Source of the DNA: a virus
IMG/VR virus record: IMGVR_UViG_3300003323_000851
Span: 1 to 64,000 of that record
DNA: 64,000 nt
Direction: 5' to 3' (one strand)
Part shown: piece by piece, positions 1-57,099 of the stretch
Layout of the letters: every line of letters begins with the position of its first letter
Numbering within the stretch: position 1 is the first letter of the stretch
Notes under the pieces: generated by a model
Databases searched by the model: none
The model's input: the letters and a program-made list of their open reading frames with translations, nothing else
What the model was told of the DNA's origin: nothing
Position numbers and translations under genes: made by a program

Positions 1-151
1 TCTCGTAGGTGGGCTGGGGTGTTTGTCGTCCGTTTGTAGGCAGCAATCCTTCTTCCCACATTTTATTATAATCGTAGCGAAGTTTAGCAACTTCAGTTTC
101 CAGGCGTTGCAATATCTGATGATGCCTTTCGAGCCGTTCTTCAGTTGTCAT
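1..151 (-). CDS. hypothetical protein, N-terminal part only (gene runs off the left edge)
   Basis: ATG at 149-151 on the minus strand, with the frame open to position 1. MTTEERLERHHQILQRLETEVAKL looks helical. Confidence 0.4.
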   Translation of the reverse strand, partial: MTTEERLERHHQILQRLETEVAKLRYDYNKMWEEGLLPTNGRQTPQPTYE

Positions 152-160
152 GGTTGGTGT

Positions 161-346
161 TTAGAGTTGATTAAACATTTTCTTTTTCTCCCGCTCCACA
201 TCCGCAGGGCGGTACTTAATATAGTATCCCTTGCGCACCGGCACAAGGCGTCCATTTTTTGCCCAATAGGTGAGCGTACGGCGTGATACTTCCAGTATCT
301 TTACCACCTCATCGGCCGTCAACATATTGTCCCAATTCTTAATCAT
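161..346 (-). CDS. excisionase-family helix-turn-helix DNA-binding protein
   Basis: 61 aa. LTADEVVKILEVSRRTLTYWAKNGRL matches the Xis/AlpA (HTH_17)-type HTH pattern. Confidence 0.65.
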   Translation of the reverse strand: MIKNWDNMLTADEVVKILEVSRRTLTYWAKNGRLVPVRKGYYIKYRPADVEREKKKMFNQL

Positions 347-628
347 ACAGCAAAAATAAAATAAATATTTGGCAATTTGCGCAATTATGGAATTTATTTT
401 ATTATCTTTGAATCCCTAACATAGGCGTTAGTCTATAACACAAAAATTTATTTTATGTAACATTCTTAAACTTCGTAGGTGCAGTTGGACTTAAGAAGGC
501 CGAGACGGCGCGCAAAACGAGCAGCAATCGTTAACTGTTGTGACACCTCGGAAAATTAGACAGGGCCAACGAGGGGCCGTTTAGCAGATCGTAAATCGCC
601 ACTTTCCGGTTCGTGCGTAACCGGGCTT

Positions 629-744
629 GAAGCGAACGCACATAGGTAGTGCCGGAGTAATTACCGCCGTGGGTTTCAAAGCCTGCTACTCAGCAATGAG
701 TACAGTTGGTCTGGGTGCAGGTTCGAGTCCTGCTCGCTTCGCCA
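629..744 (+). tRNA. tRNA-like gene, non-canonical length (116 nt), encoded CCA, isotype unassigned
   Basis: Perfect 7-bp acceptor stem: GAAGCGA 629-635 with TCGCTTC 734-740. D-arm GCAC-ATAGGTA-GTGC at 638-652. T-arm GCAGG-TTCGAGT-CCTGC at 717-733. G73 followed by CCA at 741-744. The 63 nt between the D and T arms do not fold as one 17-nt anticodon arm. Confidence 0.5.
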
Positions 745-820
745 CGGTTCATGCACGGGAGATTGAATTTGTTAATCGTGAGCTTTTATTTTCTATTTTA
801 TAAATCAAACAAAACGTAAA

Positions 821-2245
821 ATGAACAAACTTCAAAGAGAAGTAGCAATCCCTCGTGAGATTGCTCAGCTATTAAAAATGGTTGGCGTCGATGTACCCGA
901 CAACATGAAAGAAATTCAAACCCCTACAGAGTATTCCACAGAGACACAAAAGATTATCCTACCGAAAGGCATGGATAAACTTGTGGCGGCTAAAGAACTG
1001 GAGGCCCAATGGAAAAACGAAGAGTCTGTTAACGACTTTTCGACTAACTTCCAGGGATGGAACTGGCAGGATGTGCTTATTGCCGTGCGCAGAGTAACTG
1101 AACGCGAGTTCGGTTGGATGAATGGCAAGTCTGATTTTTGGAGCGGTGACCCAAAAGAGATTGACATTGTAGTAGATGTGAAGCATGGTAAGAAGGTCAA
1201 TGAAAAGGCGTTCTACGGCAATTTCAAAATCACAGGATGGGAAAACGCCCACGCCCAAATCGAGATCAACCGCGGCGGCGTGGCTATTATTAACATCAAT
1301 GCCAAGCGCAAGTTTTCGCAGCCTATCACGAATTATTTCAACATGATCCGTGAGCAATTAGAAACCGCTAGTATTTACAGGGGTAAAAACATTGTTGTCA
1401 CTCGCGAAGGCGATAACGGCCTTAATTTCGAGATCATCGAGAACAAGGGTAGTGACAAGATTGTTCTCAACCGCGGCGAACGACTTGTTGTTGATACTTT
1501 TGTATTAGGCTCCTTGGGTGAGCCTGGCAAAAGGTGCTACCTTTTCACAGGTGGCTATGGCACTGGTAAAACAGAGACCGCCATGCAGGTTGGTCGTGTG
1601 GCAGTGGCTGAACATGGCATGTCTTTCTTTTACCTGAAAGACGCTGTAGCCTTTGACCAATTGCTTAATCAGTGTAAAAAATATCAACCCTGCGTGATCT
1701 TCCTTGAAGATGTGGATGAGATCGCATCTGGCAATCAACGCGATTCGCAGATGAACAAGATACTGAACACCTTAGACGGCGTTCAAACGAAAGGCAACGA
1801 TCTTACTGTTATCTTTACCACCAACCACCCGGAGAAGATCAACAGCGCTCTGCGTCGCCCCGGTCGTATTGATGTGATGATTAAGTTCGAAAACTCCGAT
1901 CAGGAAGCAAAAGAAGAAATCTACAAGATTTATCTAAAGGATATTCCTGGGGCTGAAATGCTGGACTACAAGTCTTTGGCAAAAGTAACACCGGATGTAC
2001 AAGGTGCTGTAGTCGCTGAAATCGCTAAACGTTCTGTAAAACTGTCTCAGAAGCAAGGAACAGTCACCGATGACTTGGTAGAGTCCTGTATTCACAGCAT
2101 GAAGTACCAAATCGAACTGATGAACGACGAACTGAAAGAAGTGAATGAATCAGAGCAATTCATTCGCCTGCTCGGAAAACTTTTGGCTCCACATATATGG
2201 CAGACACAAGAGGCTCGTGATGTGGTTCATTATGTGAACAACTAA
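821..2245 (+). CDS. classical-clade AAA ATPase with an uncharacterised ~230-aa N-terminal domain
   Basis: Walker A GGYGTGKT and Walker B VIFLEDVDE. Second region of homology TTNHPEKINSALRRPGRID, as in FtsH/Cdc48-type AAA proteins. Confidence 0.85.
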   Translation: MNKLQREVAIPREIAQLLKMVGVDVPDNMKEIQTPTEYSTETQKIILPKGMDKLVAAKELEAQWKNEESVNDFSTNFQGWNWQDVLIAVRRVTEREFGWMNGKSDFWSGDPKEIDIVVDVKHGKKVNEKAFYGNFKITGWENAHAQIEINRGGVAIININAKRKFSQPITNYFNMIREQLETASIYRGKNIVVTREGDNGLNFEIIENKGSDKIVLNRGERLVVDTFVLGSLGEPGKRCYLFTGGYGTGKTETAMQVGRVAVAEHGMSFFYLKDAVAFDQLLNQCKKYQPCVIFLEDVDEIASGNQRDSQMNKILNTLDGVQTKGNDLTVIFTTNHPEKINSALRRPGRIDVMIKFENSDQEAKEEIYKIYLKDIPGAEMLDYKSLAKVTPDVQGAVVAEIAKRSVKLSQKQGTVTDDLVESCIHSMKYQIELMNDELKEVNESEQFIRLLGKLLAPHIWQTQEARDVVHYVNN

Positions 2246-56707: not shown

Positions 56708-56845
56708 CCCATGTAGAAACACAGGCCGTACTAATCAAAAAAACGTTTAGCCATTTTACCGATTCCGGTAAAACAGGGCCCCGCATTCTACGCCCCAGAG
56801 CCGTCAGGGCGGTGTCTAAAAACAGATCCCATGTAGAGACACAGG
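56708..56845 (-). repeat. two copies of an 18-nt direct repeat, 120 nt apart
   Basis: Plus strand CCCATGTAGA(A/G)ACACAGG at 56708-56725 and 56828-56845. It forms a hairpin with G-U pairs only as minus-strand RNA. A perfect 8-bp hairpin, TTTTACCG-loop-CGGTAAAA, lies at 56754-56773. Confidence 0.6.
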
Positions 56846-56950: not shown

Positions 56951-57072
56951 TCGGGATGGCAGGACTCGAACCTGCAAAAACGATGTATGGATTTATGCTG
57001 CCATGTCAAGTCTCCGAATCGAACGGTTTGCTACCTCGGTCATCGCTTGTCTACCAATTCCAACACATCCCG
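56951..57072 (-). tRNA. tRNA-like gene, non-canonical length (122 nt), tRNA-Leu-like D-arm, no encoded CCA
   Basis: Minus strand: acceptor CGGGATG/CATCCCG (7 bp). D-arm TTG-GAATTGGTAGA-CAA. T-arm GCAGG-TTCGAGT-CCTGC. A 5-bp stem CGATG/CATCG sits at the anticodon-stem position but encloses 55 nt instead of 7. Confidence 0.5.
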
Positions 57073-57073
57073 G

Positions 57074-57099
57074 TTAAAAGCACCCGTAGAAACGGGCGC
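57074..57099 (-). terminator. hairpin plus T-run just upstream of the tRNA-like gene
   Basis: The minus strand reads GCGCCCGT-TTCT-ACGGGTGC followed by TTTTAA. Confidence 0.45.

Follow-up and report, generated by a model that had tools for sequence, protein, structure and literature searches.

Phage T4 encodes, among its tRNA genes, the stable RNAs C and D, of about 120–140 nt. YrlA, a Y RNA that is also found on phages, carries tRNA-like D, T and acceptor modules recognisable by tRNA enzymes, while its ends form a Ro60-binding stem and its "acceptor" is a closed stem-loop (Chen et al. 2014, PMC4201824). Three further papers report that phage tRNAs counter host defence systems that target tRNA (PMC10264068, PMC11464382, PMC11555353).

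The locus described here lies in a window of 64,000 nucleotides from IMG/VR record IMGVR_UViG_3300003323_000851, which makes up nearly the whole of that 64,408-bp record, rated 100% complete. An exact direct repeat of 151 bp occupies the two ends (window 1–151; genome 64258–64408) and runs through an ORF; this overlap could stem from the assembly of a genome that is circular or circularly permuted, in which case the record ends would not be true termini. At positions 629–744 of the plus strand a tRNA-shaped element of 116 nt, here called E1, can be read from the sequence. As judged from its sequence and from one homologue, E1 is a conserved phage gene for a predicted RNA of 116 bases in which the top half of a tRNA is preserved, with a conserved linker and three hairpins in place of the codon-reading arm. 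The probable reading is that of a tRNA look-alike, in preference to a functional tRNA or the remnant of an integration site. The element and its surroundings comprise the following features.

161–346, minus strand: gene for a 61-aa HTH_17/MerR-type DNA-binding protein ("excisionase-like"; Pfam PF12728, 37.9 bits)
376–410, plus strand: candidate Bacteroidota-type promoter, TTTG ... TAnnTTTG, upstream of E1, read from the sequence
606–624, plus strand: GC-rich hairpin in the 5′ leader of E1, 6-bp stem and 7-nt loop, 4 nt ahead of the predicted mature 5′ end
629–635, plus strand: acceptor stem of E1, 5′ strand, pairing 7/7 by Watson-Crick pairs with 734–740
638–652, plus strand: D-arm, 4-bp stem and 7-nt loop with GG; stem identical in the homologue, one change in the loop
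653–668, plus strand: conserved linker of 16 nt, 15/16 positions identical in the homologue
669–686, plus strand: hairpin A, 5-bp stem (669–673/682–686) with the invariant 8-nt loop UUUCAAAG (674–681)
687–702, plus strand: hairpin B, 6-bp stem and GCAA loop; in the homologue, three pairs differ on both sides
703–713, plus strand: hairpin C, 3-bp stem and invariant loop UUGGU, placed where a class-II tRNA has its variable arm
714–716, plus strand: junction GGU preceding the T stem, invariant in the homologue
717–733, plus strand: T-arm, 5-bp stem (717–721/729–733) and loop UUCGAGU; in the homologue, two pairs differ on both sides
734–744, plus strand: acceptor 3′ strand (734–740), discriminator G741 and encoded CCA (742–744)
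746–792, plus strand: weak hairpin followed by the U-rich tract TTTTATTTT, a possible terminator (RNAfold, −8.2 kcal/mol)
821–2245, plus strand: gene for an AAA ATPase (Pfam PF00004)

The upper part of E1 is that of a canonical tRNA: a 7-bp acceptor stem, a discriminator base and a 3′ CCA form the top end, and the GG of the D loop together with a T loop of UUCRA type provides for the elbow. The only departure here is position 8, which is A where U is usual. The lower half differs altogether. A tRNA has a single 5-bp anticodon stem beside the D stem, with a 7-nt loop and U33; E1 has instead the 16-nt linker, the stem with the 8-nt loop and two further hairpins, with no closing helix. These elements had been picked out by a first-pass annotation made from the letters alone, and re-reading the sequence found them where it had placed them: the textbook-like T-arm, acceptor 3′ strand, G73 and CCA, the 7/7 pairing of 629–635 followed by a good D-arm, the GCAA hairpin, the mini-hairpin at 703–713, the 8-nt loop on a 5-bp stem that includes two G-U pairs, and the hairpin at 606–624.

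Signals flanking the element are weak. We liken the segment 376–410 to the published Bacteroides promoter consensus, and the tract at 746–792 was not called as a terminator by a consensus terminator scan; overall, the consensus scans found no strong promoter or terminator belonging to E1 itself. The leader 470–628 gave no support for structure (z = +0.47), and no significant complementary site for the linker, considered as an antisense sequence, was found on a phage target.

Standard tools do not see the element. ARAGORN returned 0 tRNA or tmRNA genes across the whole window, Rfam gave nothing for E1 at the gathering score, and the tRNA model RF00005 had no match to it even at E up to 10. Only a permissive Rfam scan produced a hit, to tRNA-Sec alone, at the chance level of 17.5 bits, where the cut-off is 47 (E = 1). 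The first-pass annotation had proposed ARAGORN and covariance models as checks on its reading, and neither returned a standard tRNA fold. Searches by blastn with E1 and with a second tRNA-like region (E2 and E3, described below) gave no match among 50,697 cultured-phage records, and pattern scans of IMG/VR found no further members of the family. A single pattern match in JGI metagenomes was discarded as a chance match, since it lies inside a long open reading frame. Full-text literature searches found no description of the architecture.

The neighbouring AAA ATPase, which has many relatives at 65–77% identity, was then used as an anchor for the homologue search. A single ATPase relative is present in IMG/VR; with 12 others, this made 13 loci examined. 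Among them was one homologue of E1, of 127 nt, at L015:4450–4576 on the contig of a related phage, with 86% mean column identity to E1. A covariance model (R1) found only generic tRNA-frame matches elsewhere. The arrangement of a linker and three hairpins has, as far as sequence searches reach, only two known members, and the covariation described below rests on one pairwise comparison.

Six helices (acceptor, D, hairpins A, B and C, and T) were written onto the pairwise alignment and their pairs counted. All 30 of 30 pairs are standard in both sequences; in 8 of them both partners differ between the two, and in 3 only one partner does. 0 of 500 shuffles reached these values of pairing and compensation, and sliding the partner strand by 1–3 columns lowered pairing to 33–44%. 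Compensatory changes are found in five of the six helices, all but the D stem: three pairs in hairpin B, two in the T stem, and one each in the acceptor, hairpin A and hairpin C. The structure therefore goes beyond what chance pairing would give. In the acceptor, pair 2–71 changes from A-U to G-C and pair 3–70 from A-U to G-U; hairpin A differs in 3/5 pairs, all still paired and one changed on both sides, while its loop is 8/8 identical; in hairpin C, a C-G pair of E1 is A-U in the homologue. RNAalifold, run unguided, returned the same helices. The minimum-energy fold of the homologue equals the model, and in E1 the model lies 1.6 kcal/mol above the sequence's own minimum. The claim of the first-pass annotation that a 116-nt tRNA-like gene without a canonical anticodon arm lies here is thus borne out by the covariation of the homologue.

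Conservation is not confined to the stems. Columns changed in 19/60 paired and in 6/56 unpaired positions (P = 0.007), and because unpaired columns change less than paired ones, the linker (15/16) and the 8-nt loop (8/8) are constrained in sequence. The exception is the loop of hairpin B: the homologue has a 15-nt loop there in place of the one in E1, so that this loop, including CAGCAA (691–696), is not conserved and the stem alone is kept. Within the linker, RNAalifold offers a possible 3-bp hairpin (653–655/664–666), the pairs of which are invariant. Decay of a tRNA gene into a pseudogene would explain why tRNA finders reject E1 and why ordinary tRNAs occupy the same slot in related phages, but all 19 changed stem positions keep their pairing, and unpaired regions more conserved than stems are the opposite of what decay leaves; we hold this explanation to be highly improbable.

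The alignment also disposes of several other readings of the same letters. An ORF at 627–803 overlaps the element, but the 11-nt indel in the loop of hairpin B shifts its frame between the two phages, which excludes a protein-coding reading; this spurious ORF has no relatives in the protein database. The segment GGAGTAA (654–660) had been put forward as a second acceptor 5′ strand competing with 629–635. Its pairing with the acceptor 3′ strand, 6/7 including two wobbles, is real, and it is the sole interior 7-mer that pairs at least 6/7 with that strand, in E1 and in the homologue alike; by our own estimate, about 1.2 such 7-mers would be expected by chance (0.013 per position over about 90 positions), and the competing role is therefore not supported. 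The strand at 629–635, by comparison, is backed by one compensatory and one wobble-compatible change. A proposed competition of GGAGTA and TGAGTA for the partner TACTCA is not supported either: in the homologue, GGAGTA:TACTCA acquires an A-A mismatch at its centre, in contrast to the hairpin at 687–702, which is kept through three double changes. A helix resembling an anticodon stem, between 653–655 and 711–713, was rejected because the covariation of hairpin C breaks it. The lower half of E1 is therefore an open junction of short hairpins, not the anticodon limb of a tRNA.

Hairpin A is nevertheless probably the descendant of an anticodon arm, and E1 could in principle work as a non-canonical tRNA: as a suppressor of UGA (anticodon UCA), or as a decoder of Leu type or of four-base codons (CAA or UCAA), its extra hairpins being tolerated as arms. 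We consider this unlikely. The loop UUUCAAAG does stay invariant while the stem of hairpin A changes, and it looks like an anticodon loop (UCA or CAA) enlarged by a single base; the weak tRNA-Sec alignment likewise places it on the anticodon loop, and the acceptor, D and T arms and CCA are complete. The arrangement below them, however, does not resemble a decoding limb: no helix of anticodon type joins the D-stem side to the T-stem side, the D stem and hairpin A lie 16 nt apart, and hairpin A is followed by two more hairpins. Position 8 is A instead of U, ARAGORN and Rfam reject the element, and in RNA folding the loop of hairpin A can close to give a 7-bp stem with a 4-nt loop. UGA suppression in particular lacks support, since TGA serves this phage as an ordinary stop: the standard code applies, TGA ends 35/83 ORFs, and ORF coverage of the genome does not rise when TGA is read as sense.

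The acceptor ends of the two members also differ. E1 has A3-U70 and G73 followed by CCA. The homologue has A73 followed by CAA, together with G1-C72, G2-C71 and G3-U70, and so possesses the full alanine identity set (G1-C72, G2-C71, G3-U70, A73), which E1 does not; the two would be charged differently, if charged at all. For a stop suppressor this difference would be irrelevant and is thus compatible with a decoding role, but it does mean that a role needing charging with one particular amino acid is not common to both members.

The position of E1 beside an "excisionase" had led the first-pass annotation to favour a link to integration, with the element as a phage attP core carrying tRNA sequence or, put otherwise, as a host-tRNA remnant left by integration. 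E1 does lie 283 nt from the small HTH_17 gene, and its 3′ part is that of a textbook tRNA. The protein, however, is a 61-aa HTH_17/MerR-type protein with no integrase partner: neither a tyrosine nor a serine integrase (PF00589, PF00239) is present in the complete genome. The 3′ 25 nt with CCA, or 23 nt without it, had 0 exact matches in 185,579 species (one genome each, exact matches only), so the identical host tRNA 3′ end that an attB site would supply did not turn up in that set. Moreover, E1 is of full length, with covariation in its 5′ acceptor strand and interior helices; its homologue sits elsewhere relative to the ATPase, with no HTH gene called within the 4.6 kb of contig; and the closest relative of the HTH protein (89% identity, on a soil contig) has no E1-like element beside it. 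An att site is accordingly a very remote prospect. Of the three options that had been offered, an attP core, a suppressor or frameshift-type tRNA and a tRNA mimic, the last fits the evidence and the first does not. A false signal of lysogeny is thereby removed, the combination of a tRNA-like element and an "excisionase" having suggested an att site in a genome without an integrase.

Between the HTH_17 gene and E1 lies a near-palindrome around TTGCGCAA (371–392), partly conserved beside the HTH relative in L024, which may be an operator of the HTH protein.

The placement of the element relative to the ATPase gene bears on whether it acts as an RNA in its own right. E1 lies 76 nt upstream of the ATPase gene, whereas the homologue lies 27 nt downstream of the ATPase stop, each time on the same strand as the ATPase. 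This switch of sides points to an independent gene acting in trans, not to a UTR element. It also speaks against a processing or stability signal whose fold would recruit RNase P and 3′-end enzymes to cut or protect the ATPase mRNA, the RNA having no role of its own. The shared strand in both phages and the lack of a strong promoter or terminator for E1 would suit such a signal, but acceptor and T arms would suffice for it, yet conservation in E1 is highest in the interior linker and the 8-nt loop. On balance, we think a processing signal improbable, somewhat more so than a decoding role.

The surroundings of the ATPase form a slot for tRNA genes in this group of phages. tRNA or tRNA-like genes flank the ATPase orthologue in 8 of the 13 loci examined. 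Some are ordinary (Met, Glu, Gln, Tyr), and many are odd, in that their anticodon loops are enlarged, they contain large inserts or they lack an anticodon arm; the T-arm side of E1 resembles the slot tRNAs of L022 and L013. Enlarged 9-nt loops occur in the slot tRNAs of L010 and L022, a likeness to the 8-nt loop of E1 that can be counted in favour of decoding.

More widely, the ATPase-adjacent genes at L010:4642–4719, L022:1680–1756, L012:1164–1239, L013:2897–2970 and L011:11056–11144 have 9-nt anticodon loops or are assigned A34 anticodons by ARAGORN (aat, aaa, aca). Both features are abnormal for bacteria, and the anticodon loops of this phage group look systematically altered.

E1 is not the only tRNA-shaped gene of its phage. 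The T-loop word GGTTCRANTCC has 3 copies in the window against 0.23 expected, and the 18-nt T-arm of E1 recurs on the minus strand at 56959–56976. A scan for a T-arm with a complementary acceptor stem found, besides E1, two further genes on the minus strand.

57072–56948, minus strand: E2, a 125-nt tRNA-shaped gene; D-arm of leucine type, T-arm identical to that of E1, A73, CCA not encoded
56699–56636, minus strand: E3, a 64-nt mini tRNA-like gene with a 7-bp acceptor stem, a T-arm and an ACCA end

In E2, which ARAGORN and Rfam both miss, a 5-bp stem encloses about 54 nt at the place of the anticodon loop; the middle of E3 is 29 nt long and has no anticodon arm. Both genes are followed by terminator-like hairpins, that of E2 being strong (about 56925–56893). 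By ARAGORN and the T-arm/acceptor scan combined, the phage thus carries three tRNA-shaped genes but lacks a canonical tRNA. Most of the tRNA-like genes listed here, in the phage and its relatives, have a GC-rich hairpin ahead of them, typically 5–15 nt upstream.

An RNA of 62 nt built like E3 is present in a related phage (L003:1021–1082). On the minus strand, GC-rich hairpins with the loop GT(T/C)TCTAC stand a few nucleotides ahead of tRNA-like genes (57081–57093, 56828–56840 and 56708–56720), and such hairpins occur in L003, L010, L011 and L024 as well; they may serve as terminators, processing signals or protein sites. The one at 56828–56840 precedes about 100 nt of structured non-coding sequence without a T-arm.

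Taken together, the 30/30 pairs kept, the constrained loop and linker, the placement suggesting action in trans, the lack of a canonical tRNA and the odd tRNA genes in the slot favour reading E1 as a tRNA mimic. We put the probability at roughly 0.6 that E1 is under selection for a structured RNA derived from tRNA which acts in trans as a non-decoding mimic. Such an RNA has probably arisen from an ordinary phage tRNA gene in the slot by the AAA ATPase gene. It would be cut from a longer transcript in the manner of a tRNA, by RNase P and 3′-end enzymes: the parts that E1 has kept (acceptor, D-arm, T-arm and CCA) are those recognised by RNase P, by CCA and other 3′-end enzymes and by proteins gripping the elbow and acceptor. 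The mature RNA could then act in trans on a factor that recognises tRNA, without reading codons. A candidate target would be a host defence enzyme directed against tRNA, for which E1 would serve as a decoy, or another tRNA-binding protein. No partner gene for E1 was found in the phage, nor were genes for RNA repair, a Ro60-like protein or tRNA enzymes.

We also entertain, as a tentative and on present evidence doubtful extension, that E1 represents a class of phage RNAs not yet described, combining a chargeable or processable tRNA top half with an anticodon-loop look-alike on a multi-hairpin base. Three such RNAs would replace normal tRNA in this phage, acting as decoys or inhibitors of tRNA-targeting immunity, or else as UGA or four-base decoders with extra arms. 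Taken alone, E1 is a compact fold with covariation behind it, and two of its single-stranded parts, the linker and the 8-nt loop, are sharply conserved. It suggests that some phages keep tRNA-shaped RNAs that probably cannot decode, and since standard annotation misses RNAs of this type completely, phage genomes may hold many more of them.

Among the described RNAs, tRNA-Sec (RF01852) was rejected as an identity for E1: besides the score of 17.5 bits against 47, the acceptor/T geometry is 7/5, not 8/5, and TGA is a normal stop. The tRNA-like domain of tmRNA resembles E1 in combining an acceptor and a T arm without a normal anticodon arm, and the alanine set of tmRNA (G3-U70, A73) is present in the homologue, whereas E1 has A3-U70 and G73. 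A tmRNA was rejected because E1 has no G3-U70, no conserved tag frame (short reading frames differ between E1 and the homologue), no pseudoknots and no ARAGORN call; E2 was likewise rejected as a mini-tmRNA for want of G3-U70. The RNAs in a recent preprint on bacterial tRNA mimics have a connectivity different from that of E1.

YrlA Y RNA (RF02553) is comparable as a non-coding phage RNA with tRNA-like D, T and acceptor modules, but in E1 it is the ends that form the acceptor itself. Identity with a Y RNA was rejected on this ground, together with the lack of a Ro60/TROVE gene (PF05731) in the complete genome and of an Rfam match; DUF2828 (PF11443) also had no match in the complete genome. The likeness to T4 RNAs C and D is one of description. 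From the canonical tRNA (RF00005), E1 differs in its length of 116 nt, its lower half without a closing anticodon stem, its linker and three hairpins, its 8-nt loop and its A8; it shares with that tRNA the 7-bp acceptor, the 4-bp D stem with a GG loop, the 5-bp T stem with a loop of UUCGA type, the discriminator and CCA, and a genomic slot occupied in related phages by ordinary tRNA genes.
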